Shown: positions 1,539 through 6,955 of the stretch, in pieces
Layout of the letters: each line of letters starts with the position of its first letter
Position numbering within the stretch: the first letter of the stretch is position 1
NCBI GenBank assembly: GCA_963843975.1
Contig: CAWJMG010000003.1
Span: 1,170,001-1,202,000, forward strand
Origin: an uncultured Actinomycetes bacterium
GTDB taxonomy: Bacteria > Actinomycetota > Actinomycetes > S36-B12 > CAIYMF01
Reading direction: 5' to 3'
DNA length: 32,000 bases
The notes under the pieces: model-generated
The model's input: the letters and a program-made list of their open reading frames with translations, nothing else
Database searches by the model: none
What the model was told of the DNA's origin: nothing
Position numbers and translations under genes: made by a program

Positions 1539-3266
1539 GTGACCATGCGAACCGGGCCCGAGCACGTCATCCGCTGGAACGACGACGACGAGGCGTGGGA
1601 GACCACGCTGCGCGGACGAGCGGTGCTCGCCGAGCCACGGCTCAACAAGGGGACGGCGTTCAGCACGGCTGAGCGCGAGCAGCTGGGCCTCGTCGGCCTC
1701 CTGCCGCCGCGCGTTCTGACGCTCGAGCAGCAGGCCAGCCGCGCCTACCTGCAGTACCTCGACCAGCCGACCGACCTCGCCAAGAACGTCTTCCTCACCG
1801 CGCTGCACGACCGCAACGAGGTGCTGTTCTTCCGCCTGCTCGGCCACCACCTGCCGGAGATGCTGCCGATCGTCTACACGCCGACCGTGGGCGAGGCGAT
1901 CCAGCGCTACAGCCACGAGTACCGCCGCCCGCGCGGGGTCTACCTGTCCATCGAGGACCCGCACAGCATGGAGGACGCGCTGCTCGCCACTGGTCGAGCG
2001 CGCGACGACGTCGACCTCATCATCGCCACCGACGCAGAGGGCATCCTCGGCATCGGCGACTGGGGCGTCGGCGGCATCGAGATCGCTGTGGGCAAGCTCA
2101 ACGTCTACACCTCCGCCGCCGGCATCAACCCTGCGCGCACGCTCGCCGTGATGCTCGACGTCGGCACCGACCGGCAGGAGCTGCTCGACGACCCGCTCTA
2201 CCTCGGCGTCGCGAAGCCGCGCATCGGGCGCGAGGAGTACGACGCCTTCATCGACCGCTACGTCACCGCGGCGACCAAGCTCTTCCCTCACGCGATCCTG
2301 CACTGGGAGGACTTCGGCACGTCCAACGCGCGCCGCATCCTCGACCGCTACCGCGACGAGGTCCTCACCTTCAACGACGACATGCAGGGCACCGGCGCCG
2401 TGAGCCTCGCGGCCGTGCTGTCGGCCAGCGACGTCAGCGGCACCCCTCTCGCCGAGCACCGGGTCGTCGTGTACGGCTCAGGCACCGCGGGGATCGGCAT
2501 CGCCGACCAGATCCGCGACGCGATGGTCGTGGCCGGCGTGCCCCGGGACGTCGCAACGCGGCAGTTCTGGTGCGTCGGCCGCCACGGCCTCCTCACCGAC
2601 GCCCGCCCCGACCTGCGCGACTTCCAGGAGCCGTTCGCGCGCCCGGTGACCGAGGTCGAGACGTGGGACGTCGACGCCGAGTACGGCGGCGCAAGCCTCG
2701 CGGAGGTCGTACGCCGGGTGCAGCCGACGATCCTGATCGGCACGTCGGGCCGGCCGCAGGCCTTCACCGAGGACGTCGTGCGCGAGATGGCCGCCCACGT
2801 CGACCGCCCGATCATCATGCCGATGTCGAACCCGACGGTTCTGGCCGAGGCGTTCCCCGCCGACCTGCTCGAGTGGACCGACGGCCGCGCCCTCGTCGCC
2901 AGCGGCAGCCCGTTCCCGCCGGTGTCGTACGCCGGGACGACGTACGAGATCGCCCAGGTCAACAACGCGCTGGTCTTCCCGGGCCTCGGCCTCGGCGTCA
3001 TCGTCGCTCGCGCCACGCGCATCACCGACGGCATGCTGCTCGCGGCCGCCCAGGCCGTGGCCGGCAAGGCCGATGCTCACGGTCCGGGGGCCTCGCTGCT
3101 CCCCCGTGTGGCCGACCTGCGTGCGACCTCCGCGGTCGTCGCGGCCGCGGTCGCGCGAGCCGCGCTGGCCGACGGCGTCTCGACGGCACCGGTCGACGAC
3201 ACCCTCGACGCGGTGATCGAGAAGGCCATGTGGCGCTGCGACTACAACGCGGTGCGCGCGGTCTGA
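1539..3266 (+). CDS. NAD(P)-dependent malic enzyme (oxaloacetate-decarboxylating malate dehydrogenase)
   Basis: 575 aa with hallmark motifs VYTPTVGEAIQRYS, ATDAEGILGIGDWGVGGIEIAVGKL, FNDDMQGTGAV and GSGTAGIGIAD. Start is GTG 1539 or ATG 1545. Confidence 0.9.
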   Translation: MTMRTGPEHVIRWNDDDEAWETTLRGRAVLAEPRLNKGTAFSTAEREQLGLVGLLPPRVLTLEQQASRAYLQYLDQPTDLAKNVFLTALHDRNEVLFFRLLGHHLPEMLPIVYTPTVGEAIQRYSHEYRRPRGVYLSIEDPHSMEDALLATGRARDDVDLIIATDAEGILGIGDWGVGGIEIAVGKLNVYTSAAGINPARTLAVMLDVGTDRQELLDDPLYLGVAKPRIGREEYDAFIDRYVTAATKLFPHAILHWEDFGTSNARRILDRYRDEVLTFNDDMQGTGAVSLAAVLSASDVSGTPLAEHRVVVYGSGTAGIGIADQIRDAMVVAGVPRDVATRQFWCVGRHGLLTDARPDLRDFQEPFARPVTEVETWDVDAEYGGASLAEVVRRVQPTILIGTSGRPQAFTEDVVREMAAHVDRPIIMPMSNPTVLAEAFPADLLEWTDGRALVASGSPFPPVSYAGTTYEIAQVNNALVFPGLGLGVIVARATRITDGMLLAAAQAVAGKADAHGPGASLLPRVADLRATSAVVAAAVARAALADGVSTAPVDDTLDAVIEKAMWRCDYNAVRAV

Positions 3267-3973
3267 TCCCGGTCGGCCGGGGCGTCGGTCGGACTCCCGA
3301 CGCGACCGAACGGCAGGGTGTTGCTCGAGCGCTCGTTGTGCAGGTACCGCAGGTGCTCCCGGTCGCCGAGCAGCTCGAGCCGTCGCCACAGCGGGCTGCC
3401 CGGCACGGCCTGGCTCGGGTGCTCCTGCACCGCGGCGAGCTGCGCCGCCCGGTCCACCTCGACGGTGACGTCGACCGCCGCATCCGGTACGCCGACGAAG
3501 CCGGGGAACCCCTCCTCGTCGAGCTGCCGGGTGACCGACTCGGGCAGCGTCCAGGCCACCACATCGACACCCGCACGCCGACCGACCTGCACCGCCGCCT
3601 GCGTCGCCGCGACGTGGTCCGGATGCCCGCTGATACCGGTGGAGTCGAACACGAGCAGCGCGTCCGGCGAGAAGGCGCTGACGGCCGCTGCGACGTCAGC
3701 CACGAGGGCCCCTCCGAGCGATGCGAGCCCGCCGTCGGGCCGATCGAGGAGCCGCACCCAGCACAGGCCCAGTCGCCTCGCTGCCGCGTGCAGCTCCGCC
3801 TCGCGGATCTCGCGCAGGTCTCCGTCGACGCCGTGCAGCGTCGATGCCTCCCCGTGGGTCAGGCAGAGCACACCTACGCGGGCACCCTCCGCGGCCGCCT
3901 GGGCCAGGAGTGCGCCGAGGCCGAACGACTCGTCGTCCGGGTGTGCGACCACCGCCAGGATCGAGGTCGTCAT
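3242..3973 (-). CDS. PIG-L/LmbE-family N-acetylglucosaminyl deacetylase (MshB/Mca-like)
   Basis: 243 aa. N-terminus MTTSILAVVAHPDDESFGLG carries the AHPDDE zinc-site motif. HPDH appears later (ISGHPDHVAAT). GGGGAG RBS upstream. The 3' end overlaps the convergent malic enzyme gene by 25 bp. Confidence 0.85.
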   Translation of the reverse strand: MTTSILAVVAHPDDESFGLGALLAQAAAEGARVGVLCLTHGEASTLHGVDGDLREIREAELHAAARRLGLCWVRLLDRPDGGLASLGGALVADVAAAVSAFSPDALLVFDSTGISGHPDHVAATQAAVQVGRRAGVDVVAWTLPESVTRQLDEEGFPGFVGVPDAAVDVTVEVDRAAQLAAVQEHPSQAVPGSPLWRRLELLGDREHLRYLHNERSSNTLPFGRVGSPTDAPADRDQTARTAL

Positions 3974-4015: not shown

Positions 4016-4057
4016 CGCTCAGGGACCGATACCCCTAGGGGTATCGGTCCCTGAGCG
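4016..4057. promoter_or_regulatory. Perfect 42-bp palindrome with core ATACCCC-TA-GGGGTAT (4029-4044): candidate CsoR/RicR/CstR-type operator and/or intercistronic hairpin
   Basis: CGCTCAGGGACCGATACCCCT|AGGGGTATCGGTCCCTGAGCG checked base by base as 21+21 with no mismatch. It sits between the DUF2202 stop (4106) and the deacetylase start (3973). Confidence 0.6.
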
Positions 4058-4105: not shown

Positions 4106-4813
4106 TCAGCTCGTGAAGGCGGTCAGGTGGTGCTGGGATCCGTTGCGCAGGTTGGTGTACACGCGCTGGACGTCGGCGTGACCCCCCGCGTCCGTGATCG
4201 CCCGGGTGAGGTCGTCGATGTCCATCCTTTCGATCTCGGCGCCGACCACGTCGGCAGCGACAAGGCTGACCGAACCCCGGGCGACGAGATCGTCGTACAG
4301 GGTCTGGAACGACGCGGTGGGGAAGTCGCCTGCCGCGTAGCCGACGGTCGGGTCGGCGATCCCGTAGCGCGTCAGCAGCGTGCGCAGCGACGCCGCGTGC
4401 TTGTCCTCCGCCGCCGCGATCCGCGCGAGCTCGGCGTCCCCGTACTGCGCTGCCAGCGTCGCGTAGACGTCGCCCGCGAGCTTCTCCTCCTCCACCATGG
4501 CCAGAAGGTCCGCCGTCTGCTGGGTCGTGAGAGCAGCTGTGGCGGTTGCGCCACCTGACCCTCGGGTCGCGCCGGCGTTCCCGGAACCGTTCCGGCTGCC
4601 CGAGCGGGTTCCGGCGTTCATGCCGGTCCCGGAGTGGGTGCCGGCGGTCGCGTGGGTACCGGTCCCTGCCCTGCCGTTGCCGTTGCCGTTGCCGTTGCCG
4701 GCGGCAGCGTTCACGGGCTGCGCCTGGGCCGAGCCCACCAGCACACCCGCTGCGATCAAGGCCATCGCCGCTGCGCCCGCCGTGGTCGCGAGTGCGGTTC
4801 GACGTGTCGTCAT
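4106..4813 (-). CDS. Secreted DUF2202 (ferritin-like fold) protein with low-complexity N/G/T/H-rich linker
   Basis: 235 aa. Signal peptide MTTRRTALATTAGAAAMALIAAGVLVGSAQA. The C-terminal 'LLAMVEEEKLAGDVYATLAAQYG...AAAEDKHAASLRTLL' matches the DUF2202 pattern. Confidence 0.8.
   Translation of the reverse strand: MTTRRTALATTAGAAAMALIAAGVLVGSAQAQPVNAAAGNGNGNGNGRAGTGTHATAGTHSGTGMNAGTRSGSRNGSGNAGATRGSGGATATAALTTQQTADLLAMVEEEKLAGDVYATLAAQYGDAELARIAAAEDKHAASLRTLLTRYGIADPTVGYAAGDFPTASFQTLYDDLVARGSVSLVAADVVGAEIERMDIDDLTRAITDAGGHADVQRVYTNLRNGSQHHLTAFTS
4673..4696. repeat. (GCCGTT)x4 hexanucleotide microsatellite inside the DUF2202 gene, encoding (NG)4
   Basis: Direct reading: gccgtt gccgtt gccgtt gccgtt. 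It translates on the minus strand to GNGNGNGNG. Confidence 0.9.
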
Positions 4814-4952: not shown

Positions 4953-4966
4953 TACCCCTGGGGGTA
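4953..4966. promoter_or_regulatory. CsoR/RicR/CstR-type operator candidate A (TACCCC-TG-GGGGTA) in the divergent DUF2202 / trxA intergenic region
   Basis: GC-tract palindrome flanked by TA/AT, of the same architecture as the 4029-4044 core. Confidence 0.55.
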
Positions 4967-4975
4967 CCTGGGAAC

Positions 4976-4991
4976 ATACCCCGGGGGGTAT
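4976..4991. promoter_or_regulatory. CsoR/RicR/CstR-type operator candidate B (ATACCCC-GG-GGGGTAT), 24 bp centre-to-centre from site A
   Basis: Both 7-nt arms are perfect. The site ends 43 bp upstream of the trxA ATG. Confidence 0.6.
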
Positions 4992-5033: not shown

Positions 5034-5402
5034 ATGGCCACCCTGACGCTCACCAGCGACACCTTCGAGCAGACCGTGACCGCCGACGGCATCACGTTCG
5101 TCGACTTCTGGGCCGCATGGTGCGGCCCGTGCCGCGCGTTCGCCCCGATCTTCGAGAAGGCGTCCGACAACCACGACGACATCCGCTTCGGGAAGGTCGA
5201 CACCGAGGCCGAGCAGTCGATCGCCGCCGCCGCACAGATCTCCGCCATCCCCACGCTCATGGCGTTCCGCGACGGGATCCTCGTCTACCGCGAGGCGGGT
5301 GCCTTGCGCGAGAAGGACTTCGAGCAGCTGATCACCGCGGTGCGCGAGCTCGACATGGACGACATCCGCGCCCAGGTGGCCGCGGCCAACGCCTCGGTCT
5401 GA
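5034..5402 (+). CDS. trxA: Thioredoxin
   Basis: 122 aa with the canonical FWAAWCGPCRAFAP active site. GGAGGA RBS upstream. Confidence 0.9.
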   Translation: MATLTLTSDTFEQTVTADGITFVDFWAAWCGPCRAFAPIFEKASDNHDDIRFGKVDTEAEQSIAAAAQISAIPTLMAFRDGILVYREAGALREKDFEQLITAVRELDMDDIRAQVAAANASV

Positions 5403-5433
5403 CACCCCTCCCCACCACGACCCGGAGATCCCC

Positions 5434-5838
5434 GTGAAGAACCCCGCCCGCATGGCAGTGCTCGCCCTCATCGCCCTCGTCGGCTCGTTGGTCCTCGCCG
5501 GCTGCGGTGGCGGCAGCAGCGTGCAGACCGTGAGCCCACAGGACTTCCTGGCCAAGGCATCCACGTCCGGGGTCGTGGTGGTGGACGTCCGCACCGCAGG
5601 CGAGTTCGCCCAGGGCCACGTCGACGGAGCGATCAACATCGACGTCGAGGCACCCACGTTCGACGCGCAGATCGGCCAGCTCGACAAGGCAGCGACGTAC
5701 GCCGTCTACTGCCACAGCGGCCGCCGCTCGGGGCTCGCCACGGACGCGATGGGCAAGGCCGGCTTCACGAGCGTGTACAACCTGCAGGGCGGCATCGCCG
5801 ACCTCCAGTCCGCCGGCGCCTCGATCGTCACCGGTTAG
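5434..5838 (+). CDS. Rhodanese-domain lipoprotein (extracytoplasmic sulfurtransferase)
   Basis: 134 aa. Signal peptide plus lipobox (LVLAGCGGGSS). Rhodanese active-site loop YCHSGRRS. GTG start 31 nt after the trxA stop. Confidence 0.85.
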   Translation: MKNPARMAVLALIALVGSLVLAGCGGGSSVQTVSPQDFLAKASTSGVVVVDVRTAGEFAQGHVDGAINIDVEAPTFDAQIGQLDKAATYAVYCHSGRRSGLATDAMGKAGFTSVYNLQGGIADLQSAGASIVTG

Positions 5839-5847
5839 CCGCACCGC

Positions 5848-6330
5848 ATGCCGTACGACCGTTCGGCCTGGGCGGCGCTCGCCCAGTGGCCTCGACGCCG
5901 CTGGGTGGCCGCAGGCCTCGCGACGATCAGCACGGTGCTCGTCCTCGGCAGCCCCACGGTGCTCGTGCCGACTCCGGTGTTCGGCCGCGAGGTCGCGGTG
6001 ACGGGGTGGGCCTGGCCCGCCCTGATCGTGACATCCGTTCTGGCGGGTCTCGTCGCCGCGACCTACGTGCGCACAGGTGCGCCGGAGGTGCGCGACGATT
6101 TCAGCCGGGTCGGGCTTGCGGGCGGCTTCCTGACCTACCTCGCCGTCGGCTGCCCGGTGTGCAACAAGATCGCGCTGCTCGCACTCGGGTACACAGGCGC
6201 CCTGCAGTGGTTCGCACCGGTGCAGCCGTTCCTCGCCGTGGCCGGCATCGCACTGCTCGCCTACGCACTTCAGCGCAGGCTGGAGGGCGAGAGGTCCTGC
6301 CGTGTCCCGGACTCCGCGACGGCGTCATGA
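5848..6330 (+). CDS. Integral membrane protein (about 4 TM) with intramembrane CPVC motif, unknown family
   Basis: 160 aa with four hydrophobic segments. 'LAVGCPVCNKIALLALG' lies in predicted TM3. The gene starts 9 nt after the rhodanese stop. Confidence 0.7.
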   Translation: MPYDRSAWAALAQWPRRRWVAAGLATISTVLVLGSPTVLVPTPVFGREVAVTGWAWPALIVTSVLAGLVAATYVRTGAPEVRDDFSRVGLAGGFLTYLAVGCPVCNKIALLALGYTGALQWFAPVQPFLAVAGIALLAYALQRRLEGERSCRVPDSATAS

Positions 6331-6680
6331 ACCCCGCCGCACCAGACCTGCTCGGCACGCTGCTCGAGGACGCCGCCCTCACGCTCTCGCGACTGGCCGG
6401 CGGTGCCGCCGTCTGCACGTTCAGCCGTGCTGGGGTCCCGGTGCCGGGTATCAAGTACGCCGAAGGCCGCTGGGCAGCCCTCCGCGGGGTGCAGCGCGCC
6501 GCCCTCCGAGGAGCCGACCTCGGCGAGGCATCGTCCGACGCACTCGCGACGTGGTCGCGCGAGCTCGAGTCCGCGGCCTCCCGCGAGCACGGGCGCGACT
6601 GGATCGCCTACCGAACCGGTGGTGTCGACGCGATCTGCGAGCTGCTCGACCGCCACGCCGCGCCGAGTCCGGGTGCATGA
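6327..6680 (+). CDS. Hypothetical protein (117 aa), translationally coupled to the CPVC membrane protein
   Basis: ATGA overlap at 6327-6330. It is the in-frame tail of track ORF 5886-6680 (MNPAAPDLLGTLLEDAALTL...). High GC3. I recognise no domain. Confidence 0.55.
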   Translation: MNPAAPDLLGTLLEDAALTLSRLAGGAAVCTFSRAGVPVPGIKYAEGRWAALRGVQRAALRGADLGEASSDALATWSRELESAASREHGRDWIAYRTGGVDAICELLDRHAAPSPGA

Positions 6681-6763
6681 CCTGCGTACAGCGCCCGTTC
6701 CTCGGCGGTCCTGGGGTGTTCTTGGCAGGCTGGACCCCTCACATCGCACTCGAGGAGGGCCTC

Positions 6764-6955
6764 ATGTTCGGGATCGGCGGCTTCACCGGTGGCAGCAAGA
6801 ACGGCGACCACTATGAGATCGAGGTCAACGAGGGCTCGGTGAACATGAAGAAGTTCAGCTCGGCGGCCAACGAGCGCCACGCCAACGGCTATCGCATGGC
6901 CCACGTCTTCATGCAGGAGGGCAACACGATCGTCGTCTGGGAGAAGGTCGGCTGA
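6764..6955 (+). CDS. Small hypothetical protein (63 aa), possibly DUF4177-like
   Basis: ATG preceded by GAGGAGGG RBS (6752-6759). Sequence: MFGIGGFTGGSKNGDHYEIEVNEGSVNMKKFSSAANERHANGYRMAHVFMQEGNTIVVWEKVG. GC is noticeably lower than in neighbouring genes. Confidence 0.6.
   Translation: MFGIGGFTGGSKNGDHYEIEVNEGSVNMKKFSSAANERHANGYRMAHVFMQEGNTIVVWEKVG

Follow-up and report, generated by a model that had tools for sequence, protein, structure and literature searches.

A remote MerT relative in a persulfide-stress operon of Actinomycetes, a candidate cysteine-relay transporter of sulfane sulfur

Why should a cytoplasmic thioredoxin, a lipoprotein rhodanese and a membrane protein with a cysteine pair buried in one of its helices be encoded together behind the same tandem operators? 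This arrangement is found in a 32,000-nucleotide (nt) stretch of a high-GC actinobacterial genome, that of an uncultured Actinomycetes bacterium (assembly GCA_963843975.1, contig CAWJMG010000003.1; G000:C3:1170001-1202000), which we refer to as the window. Its closest named relative is Longivirga aurantiaca, with 88% identity between the membrane proteins. The thioredoxin (trx), rhodanese and membrane protein genes and a fourth gene, hereafter gene 4, constitute one operon of a persulfide-stress regulon. A first-pass annotation, made from the letters of the DNA, had described four tightly packed genes behind tandem operators; the open reading frames (ORFs), their coordinates, the gaps of 31 nt (trx to rhodanese) and 9 nt (rhodanese to membrane gene) and the ATGA overlap joining the membrane gene to gene 4 were all verified. 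Profile comparison shows the C-terminal half of the membrane protein to be remotely homologous to the mercury transporter MerT, and we tentatively propose that the protein could pass sulfane sulfur across the membrane along a relay of cysteines.

The membrane protein founds a large actinobacterial family that has no annotation. A total of 2543 matches were retrieved from a collection clustered at 90% identity, all labelled 'hypothetical' and none with a Pfam domain, and the family comprises at least 808 clusters at 50% identity. It is present in 32 out of 301 evenly drawn Actinomycetia genomes, that is, in about 10% of them, and in 26 out of 150 genera. The CPVC pair, singled out earlier as the only conserved-looking feature, is no chance feature: among 105 representatives (50%-identity clustering), 98-99% contain GCPxCNK, and the conservation of G-C-P-x-C-N-K amounts to 95-99%. 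The residues invariant in a 75-sequence alignment are T37, F45, R47, T52, G67, G92, A99, G101, C102, P103, C105, N106, K107, G114, G117, F122, P124, Q126, P127 and R144, and Cys151, in the cytoplasmic tail, is kept in 74 of these sequences. The protein has four hydrophobic segments, and the CPVC lies 13-16 residues into the third, a stretch of approximately 30 residues. Counts of lysine plus arginine place the N-terminus inside, loop 1 outside, loop 2 inside and the C-terminus inside, and conservation is highest in CPxCNK and in the two loops on the outer side. An AlphaFold2 model with a predicted local distance difference test (pLDDT) score of 81.7 contains helices at residues 16-39, 55-71, 87-100 and 103-149, the break between the last two falling precisely on G101-C102. 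Internal duplication was absent, the N- and C-terminal halves being unrelated in a profile comparison.

The first-pass annotation had recognised no family for this protein. Pfam and NCBIfam indeed contain none, but its C-terminal half proved on profile comparison to be remotely homologous to MerT. The only hint given by hmmscan was a MerTP match over residues 102-149 (E 0.027). Comparison with a Tn501-type MerT query, 99.1% identical to an annotated plasmid MerT, gave hhalign values of 87%, E 4e-6 and a score of 40.6; the reversed control scored 13.4, 60 global shuffles 13.2 +/- 2.6 and 60 local shuffles 13.8 +/- 3.0. When the profile of 105 sequences was compared with a set of five MerT proteins, four of them from annotated plasmids, the values were 93.6%, E 2e-7 and a score of 48.4, against 10.9 for the reversed profile and 14.9 +/- 3.8 for column shuffles, the shuffled scores lying approximately 9 standard deviations lower. 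Overall, real MerT scores were 45-48, compared to 11-15 for reversed or shuffled controls. The C-terminal half alone matched MerT with 95% and E 4e-8, while hhalign found no similarity between the N-terminal half and MerT. MerT was also the Pfam family with the most sub-threshold matches among family members (11 out of 75, best E 0.0013), and the representative P0148 reached E 1e-4 and 22.6 bits, against a cut-off of 32.9. In the alignment, GC102PVC105 falls on C24C25 of MerT, LLALGYTGA on LIALGFSGA, FAPVQP on LEPYRP and Cys151 on Cys76, which is the first cytoplasmic cysteine of MerT. The aligned motifs are GC..C with CC, LG(Y/F)(T/S)GA, (A/E)PxQ/RP and the cytoplasmic cysteine.

The membrane protein is thus remotely related to the MerT core without belonging to the MerT family proper, because the Pfam MerT model is blind to the window gene and the genome contains no MerA above cut-off. 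Canonical mercury resistance was ruled out, since MerA is absent and the loci have no mer neighbours. The likeness to the MerP-MerT-MerA system of Tn501/Tn21 lies in the core formed by the first two transmembrane (TM) helices of MerT and the loop after them, with its intramembrane cysteine pair, LGxxGA and (A/E)PxQ/RP motifs and cytoplasmic cysteine. The logic would likewise be common to both, the stressor inducing an extracytoplasmic carrier, a membrane protein lined with thiols and thiol proteins of the cytoplasm because that is where detoxification occurs. However, mer operons contain merR, merP and merA, none of which occurs here; instead, control is of the CsoR/CstR type, and sulfur and thiol genes surround the membrane gene.

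The operators define the regulon to which the operon belongs. Two of them stand in tandem before trx, and a TATAGT hexamer resembling a -10 element abuts the second, 43 nt ahead of the trx start. A genome scan retrieved 8 perfect TACCCC-N2-GGGGTA sites, of which the first operator is one; with one mismatch allowed, 15 sites per strand were found, compared to 5 for a control pattern. The second operator, a 16-bp site, is identical to ATACCn6GGTAT, the operator of ScCsoR defined by electrophoretic mobility shift assays in Streptomyces coelicolor, where this repressor responds to sulfane sulfur and its site occurs twice, in tandem, in the pdo promoter (PMC7533328). Other perfect sites precede the PIG-L gene of the window, the gene of a metallo-beta-lactamase (MBL)-fold/rhodanese protein that is PDO-like and is followed by TauE, a SLAC1/TehA-type channel gene, the gene of a 485-aa SQR-like flavoprotein and a CsoR-family gene reading x-C-x-C; a further one lies in the divergent promoter of a CoADR-rhodanese/CsoR-family/rhodanese unit. 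Three CsoR-family paralogues in the genome conform to the CstR pattern, with x-C-x-C at the ligand positions (two cysteines and no metal-ligand histidine), and two of them lie beside identical operators. None of the three is inside the window, and no regulator gene adjoins the operon. A fourth paralogue, reading x-C-H-C, is encoded beside copZ and copA and scores 141 bits with the RicR model, compared to 35-42 for the others. The site upstream of this copper locus, ATACCCTAGGGGGGTAC, has a spacer one base longer than that of the 8 sulfur sites (L001, G000:C1:1236742-1239987, around 1369-1387), and this difference may be a route by which the copper and persulfide paralogues avoid cross-talk. 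According to the regulon comparison, all perfect sites flank sulfur-oxidation genes or x-C-x-C repressors. Judged by its operators, the operon belongs to a CstR-type persulfide regulon, probably under a CsoR-family repressor, because the same operator fronts the SQR-like, PDO-rhodanese/TauE, TehA-like, CoADR-rhodanese and x-C-x-C repressor genes while the site of the copper CsoR is spaced differently.

The operator recurs in other genomes. It precedes the membrane gene, or the operon to which this belongs, by several tens of nucleotides at 65 out of 81 named loci, with or without partner genes, and it is likewise present in 15 out of 27 genomes sampled evenly and independently. In Demequina sediminis and Actinotalea lenta, it fronts dispersed genes: the membrane gene (followed by OsmC in some cases), trx, the lipoprotein rhodanese, an SQR-like gene, CoADR (with or without rhodanese), rhodanese plus PDO, and cstR; in A. 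lenta, a DsbD_TM (CcdA-like) gene is added to these. The link between membrane protein, thioredoxin and lipoprotein rhodanese that the first-pass annotation had drawn from their adjacency is, therefore, borne out by a common persulfide-type operator even where the genes are scattered. The regulon resembles the cst locus of Staphylococcus aureus and SCO0618-0620 of S. coelicolor in its tandem ATACC-N6-GGTAT sites, x-C-x-C repressors, PDO-rhodanese, TauE, rhodanese and SQR, whereas the described CstR/ScCsoR regulons contain no thioredoxin, lipoprotein rhodanese, membrane family, gene 4, DUF2202 or PIG-L (PMC7533328).

Some further observations concern this regulon. The CoADR-rhodanese behind its operator was called as two ORFs of 273 and 276 aa separated by a 70-nt gap (L135 3848-5570; G000:C3:1647847-1649569), which could be due to a frameshift, to splitting of the gene or to an error in the sequence. 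The third x-C-x-C paralogue (L003, G000:C3:2680586-2683768) lies just downstream of a CcdA-like gene, a fragment, and of an AhpC/TSA-type redoxin with a GCQSC motif; ATACC-N6-GGTAT was not found in the 3.2 kb around it. A small cysteine-rich protein (C-x2-C-x-K-x-T-W-x-G-C-G-Q-H-V) without a Pfam family is encoded beside sulfur-stress genes and operators in unrelated genomes (L216 4988-5191, L195 3321-3608).

Could the membrane protein instead carry electrons? The analogy with CcdA, DsbD or VKOR suggested by the first-pass annotation found no support, since the protein has neither sequence nor fold similarity to those families. No Pfam match to DsbD_TM (PF02683), VKOR or DsbB was found for the window protein or for 75 relatives; Foldseek of its AlphaFold2 model against the PDB returned nothing significant (best E 2.5), and a PDB profile search gave no sequence match at E<=10. 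CcdA has six TM helices with one cysteine on each of two of them, whereas the membrane protein has four, with both membrane cysteines on one helix. CcdA/DsbD, ScsB/ScsC and TsoB are comparable in that each uses essential cysteines in the membrane to connect thioredoxin in the cytoplasm to thiol proteins outside it. CcdA-like proteins are separate neighbours or fusion partners of the membrane family, with no homology to it. In 6 out of 27 evenly sampled genomes, five of them without the operator, a more divergent member is encoded within or next to an operon for a DsbA-like protein that is exported (Thioredoxin_4/DSBA, CPFC) and for a CcdA-like one (DsbD_TM). The first gene of such a DsbA-like/CcdA-like/membrane-protein operon twice encodes a fusion of an ArsR-type helix-turn-helix domain with a rhodanese (L215 6956-7633, L216 5493-6170), possibly the sulfur-sensing regulator of this context. 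In P0123, a metagenomic 50%-cluster representative of 457 aa, DsbD_TM (residues 8-190) and the membrane-protein domain (residues 297-445) form one continuous fusion, the linker of which contains an extra helix and an RRRRR segment, fitting the predicted topologies. These links tie the membrane family firmly to envelope thiol chemistry. They also suggest that it is a partner of reductant conduits rather than a conduit, because it shares regulons and operons with CcdA-like genes and, in one case, a polypeptide.

The two upstream partners were identified as the first-pass annotation had proposed. The thioredoxin matches PF00085 (E 7e-24) and TIGR01068, above its cut-off (99.9 bits vs 96.8), and contains WCGPC. 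The rhodanese matches PF00581 (E 3e-18), with Cys93 as the catalytic residue of its CHSGRRS loop, and its N-terminus, MKNPARMAVLALIALVGSLVLAGC, reads by eye as a lipoprotein signal with the lipobox LAGC. Signal and lipobox are retained in orthologues, namely those of L039, L041, L042 and L097 and the operator-controlled Demequina and Actinotalea copies. Both proteins weakly match NF045694, the NCBIfam model of the 'rhodanese/DsbD fusion-like selenoprotein TsoB'. TsoB shows that rhodanese, DsbD-like and thioredoxin-like modules can be combined, and it qualifies the earlier statement that no module of thioredoxin, membrane protein and rhodanese had been described. A close homologue of the lipoprotein rhodanese occurs in 18 out of 28 genomes with the membrane protein and in 25 out of 273 without it (301 genomes); because related genomes are not independent, this co-occurrence serves as an indication rather than as a statistical test. 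The rhodanese also matches the NCBIfam model of PspE under its cut-off (E 6e-12). Like PspE of Escherichia coli, it is a single-domain, single-cysteine rhodanese outside the cytoplasmic membrane, but PspE is soluble, belongs to the psp regulon and has no known dedicated membrane partner, whereas the rhodanese described here is a lipoprotein of a persulfide regulon.

Gene 4 belongs to a small family (59 matches) and is covered by no model of Pfam or NCBIfam. Its invariant positions are C30, E46, G47, W49, A50, L52, W76, D91, W92, A94, Y95 and G98. The AlphaFold2 model (pLDDT 92.3) is a four-helix bundle with a beta-hairpin that bears Cys30, for which neither Foldseek nor a profile search found a match in the PDB. 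Gene 4 directly follows the membrane gene in 23 out of 44 gene-4 loci. Where it stands alone, it adjoins sulfur-stress genes encoding PIG-L, a YgaP-like TM protein, SQR, CstR, OsmC or Tpx. An operator-controlled trio of A. lenta (L164 2539-3657) consists, in this order, of trx, a gene-4-like protein (E 1e-13 with the gene-4 hidden Markov model) and a membrane protein of 128 aa that carries GCTPC in one of its helices and a cysteine at its C-terminus. Homology of the latter to the membrane family or to MerT was not supported by hhalign (8-11% and 0.1%), and the resemblance is one of analogous architecture only.

Neighbourhoods were compared over 72 named loci with a codon-usage gene caller, this denominator being used because the caller missed the membrane gene in 9 out of 81. 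Gene 4 lies directly 3' of the membrane gene, on the same strand, at 17 of the 72 loci. Within four genes of the membrane gene, a rhodanese is encoded at 13 and a thioredoxin at 12; PIG-L is near it at 8, DUF2202 at 7 and OsmC at 5, directly after it in 4 of these, and a TetR gene precedes it at 10. The synteny expected by the first-pass annotation exists in part. The genes cluster in at least three orders, namely trx-rhodanese-membrane-gene 4 (the Longivirga/Nanopelagicales group), membrane-gene 4 followed by a second operator and trx-rhodanese(-rhodanese), and a divergent rhodanese facing membrane-gene 4 (Propionicimonas), but 55 out of 72 loci have no trx, rhodanese or gene 4.

We favour, with a little less than an even chance of its being correct, the proposal that the membrane protein is a MerT-like cysteine-relay transporter in a persulfide-stress operon, with sulfane sulfur as the cargo, the rhodanese in the role of MerP and the Cys30 protein and thioredoxin as acceptor and reductant. 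The cargo would most likely be sulfane sulfur carried on cysteines as a persulfide or trisulfide; its identity, the direction of transfer and the contacts among the four proteins are what we infer. Persulfide stress would free the tandem operators from a CstR-type repressor, as the operator matches suggest. The lipoprotein rhodanese would then form Cys93-SSH outside, and trans-persulfidation would hand the sulfane sulfur to the CPxC of the MerT-like core and on to Cys151. In the cytoplasm, the Cys30 protein could take up the sulfur, or thioredoxin could reduce it to sulfide, which would be handled by the SQR/PDO/TauE arm of the same regulon. Such a scheme would follow mer-like logic, with stressor-induced import for cytoplasmic detoxification, although export would fit the data equally well. 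Thioredoxin is an established remover of sulfane sulfur (PMC6831875). That small cytoplasmic cysteine proteins (gene 4 and OsmC) follow the membrane gene counts for a relay. In its fullest form, the idea is of a previously undescribed trans-persulfidation relay that would move zero-valent sulfur across the cytoplasmic membrane on a MerT scaffold, with an exported rhodanese as MerP, transfer from CPxC to Cys151, the Cys30 protein, OsmC or thioredoxin as acceptors, and reduction by thioredoxin or by CcdA/DsbA-like partners; this complete version is possible but rather unlikely. A comparable arrangement is known from thiosulfate uptake by YeeE/YeeD (TsuA/TsuB), in which a membrane protein with conserved cysteines is encoded next to a small cytoplasmic protein with a single cysteine. 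These proteins, however, have other folds and belong to other families (Sulf_transp PF04143 and TusA), and PF04143 was touched by only 1 out of 75 members of the membrane family (E 0.013).

Several observations weigh against this proposal, and the chief uncertainty is the cargo, sulfur or a soft metal. The Pfam MerT model (PF02411) gave no match for the window protein at E<=1, nor at its gene in the genome at E<=10. MerT has vicinal CC where this family has CPxC; it has a second cytoplasmic cysteine, C82, to which the single tail cysteine of the family offers no counterpart; and it has a third helix that is missing here, where two additional helices, with a conserved loop on the outside, are present at the N-terminus. 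The confidence of the AlphaFold2 model is moderate around CPxC (pLDDT 66-75). Neither rhodanese nor thioredoxin is an obligatory partner, because most family members stand alone, and the trx-rhodanese pair is often fused (as in L101) or under its own operator. The exported rhodanese partner inferred in the first-pass annotation exists here and in some relatives, but at the loci themselves the lipoprotein form was found only in those of Longivirga type and in L097; the other syntenic rhodaneses, which are the majority, have no signal peptide and are cytoplasmic. At 18 out of 44 loci, gene 4 is found beside other sulfur-stress genes and is accompanied by neither the membrane gene nor trx or rhodanese, and it was therefore rejected as a dedicated partner of the membrane protein. 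A soft-metal cargo is kept as a rival because the same operator type serves copper-responsive RicR/CsoR elsewhere (PMC7533328) and, in A. lenta, the operator additionally fronts a CopC/PCuAC cluster.

In its developed form, this rival holds that the genes are co-regulated and otherwise uncoupled: thioredoxin and rhodanese would each detoxify their own compartment, and the membrane protein would be a MerT-like transporter for Cu(I), Ag(I), Hg(II) or another thiophile. A CsoR-family repressor could control a metal transporter because thiol-reactive metals and persulfides give overlapping stress. The MerT homology, the operator type common to copper-sensing regulators, the Actinotalea site and the retention of the operator where trx, rhodanese and gene 4 are all absent speak for it, as does the operon context with DsbA-like and CcdA-like proteins, which we take to resemble the copper-linked Scs system. 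It is nonetheless unlikely. The copZ-copA site is spaced differently and the perfect sites flank sulfur-oxidation genes or x-C-x-C repressors, the Demequina regulon contains no copper genes, rhodanese recurs in both contexts (including the ArsR-rhodanese regulator), MerA is missing from the genome, and switching on an importer during copper stress would work against the cell unless the cytoplasm offered a sink. That the membrane protein is a CcdA/DsbD-like conduit, through which electrons would pass from thioredoxin via CPxC to the exported rhodanese and regenerate or depersulfidate its catalytic cysteine, is improbable. The three conserved cysteines do mark a path from the cytoplasmic tail to mid-membrane, thioredoxin and lipoprotein rhodanese are co-regulated with the membrane gene in several genera, and the genome-level co-occurrence with the lipoprotein rhodanese is compatible with it. 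Yet the searches described above revealed no similarity to these conduits, and the homology detected was with a cargo transporter. True CcdA-like genes are present in its regulons, in its operons and as a fusion, which would leave a second conduit redundant. In addition, this genome itself has a CcdA-like and redoxin pair beside its third CstR-type gene, and thioredoxin is often paired or fused with cytoplasmic rhodaneses. More improbable still, the membrane protein could be a client or scaffold of envelope thiol-disulfide systems, acting as a sink or sensor of persulfides or disulfides and kept reduced by thioredoxin or by CcdA/DsbA-like proteins. The operons and the fusion with such proteins would suit this role, as would the high conservation of the two extracytoplasmic loops and CPxCNK, but the conserved MerT core, including the cytoplasmic acceptor cysteine, fits transfer through the membrane better than a one-sided sink, and there is no signalling domain.

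The coordinates of the operon, its operators and the neighbouring genes are given in Table 1.

Table 1. Operators and genes of the locus; positions are counted from the first nucleotide of the window.
Feature	Position	Strand	Remarks
PIG-L family deacetylase (BshB/Mca/MshB-like)	3242..3973	-	PF02585 E 3e-28; behind third operator
Operator 3, ATACCCCTAGGGGTAT	4029..4044		Upstream of PIG-L gene, opposite strand to trx
Secreted DUF2202 (ferritin-like) protein	4106..4813	-	PF09968 E 1e-30; divergent, sharing operator region
Operator 1, TACCCCTGGGGGTA	4953..4966		CsoR/CstR type; among 8 perfect TACCCC-N2-GGGGTA genome sites
Operator 2, ATACCCCGGGGGGTAT	4976..4991		ATACC-N6-GGTAT type; matches S. coelicolor ScCsoR site
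Thioredoxin, cytoplasmic, WCGPC	5034..5402	+	PF00085, TIGR01068; regulon-specific paralogue
Single-domain rhodanese with lipoprotein signal	5434..5838	+	PF00581; GTG start, GGAGA ribosome-binding site
Membrane protein, four TM helices, GCPxCNK in TM3, tail Cys151	5848..6330	+	Residues 90-152, remote MerT homologue
Gene 4, 117-aa soluble protein, Cys30	6327..6680	+	No known family

The third operator is located between the DUF2202 stop and the PIG-L start (4016-4057). The PIG-L protein matches the NCBIfam models of BshB1, Mca and MshB, all under cut-off, and in several other genomes PIG-L genes again accompany the membrane gene or gene 4. Together with the position behind the operator, this recurrence suggests that the persulfide regulon has a branch for low-molecular-weight thiols of the mycothiol type. 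Directly 3' of gene 4 lies a 63-aa ORF (6764-6955) with a strong GAGGAGG ribosome-binding site and no Pfam family. A scan for consensus promoters and terminators found no sigma-70 promoter and one terminator-like site, a weak hairpin at 6700-6716, which is no more than expected by chance. In two genomes without the CsoR-type operator, BlaI/BlaR1-type regulator pairs (Penicillinase_R plus M56/M48 peptidase) directly adjoin the membrane gene (L219 5957-7365, L220 4641-6025).

A search of the literature library found no paper that joins MerT with persulfide or sulfane sulfur. To the known CstR regulons, the loci described here add a thioredoxin, a lipoprotein rhodanese, a MerT-like protein, a Cys30 protein, OsmC, PIG-L and DUF2202, and they place a candidate MerT-type cysteine relay within such a regulon. 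In E. coli, sulfane sulfur made by the periplasmic PspE appears inside the cell, and its route of entry is stated to be unknown (PMC10215317); for this crossing of the membrane, the family offers a concrete and testable candidate. The family also suggests that the MerT scaffold serves for cargo other than mercury. Should the cargo prove to be a metal, the family would still represent a new MerT-like transporter under CsoR control.

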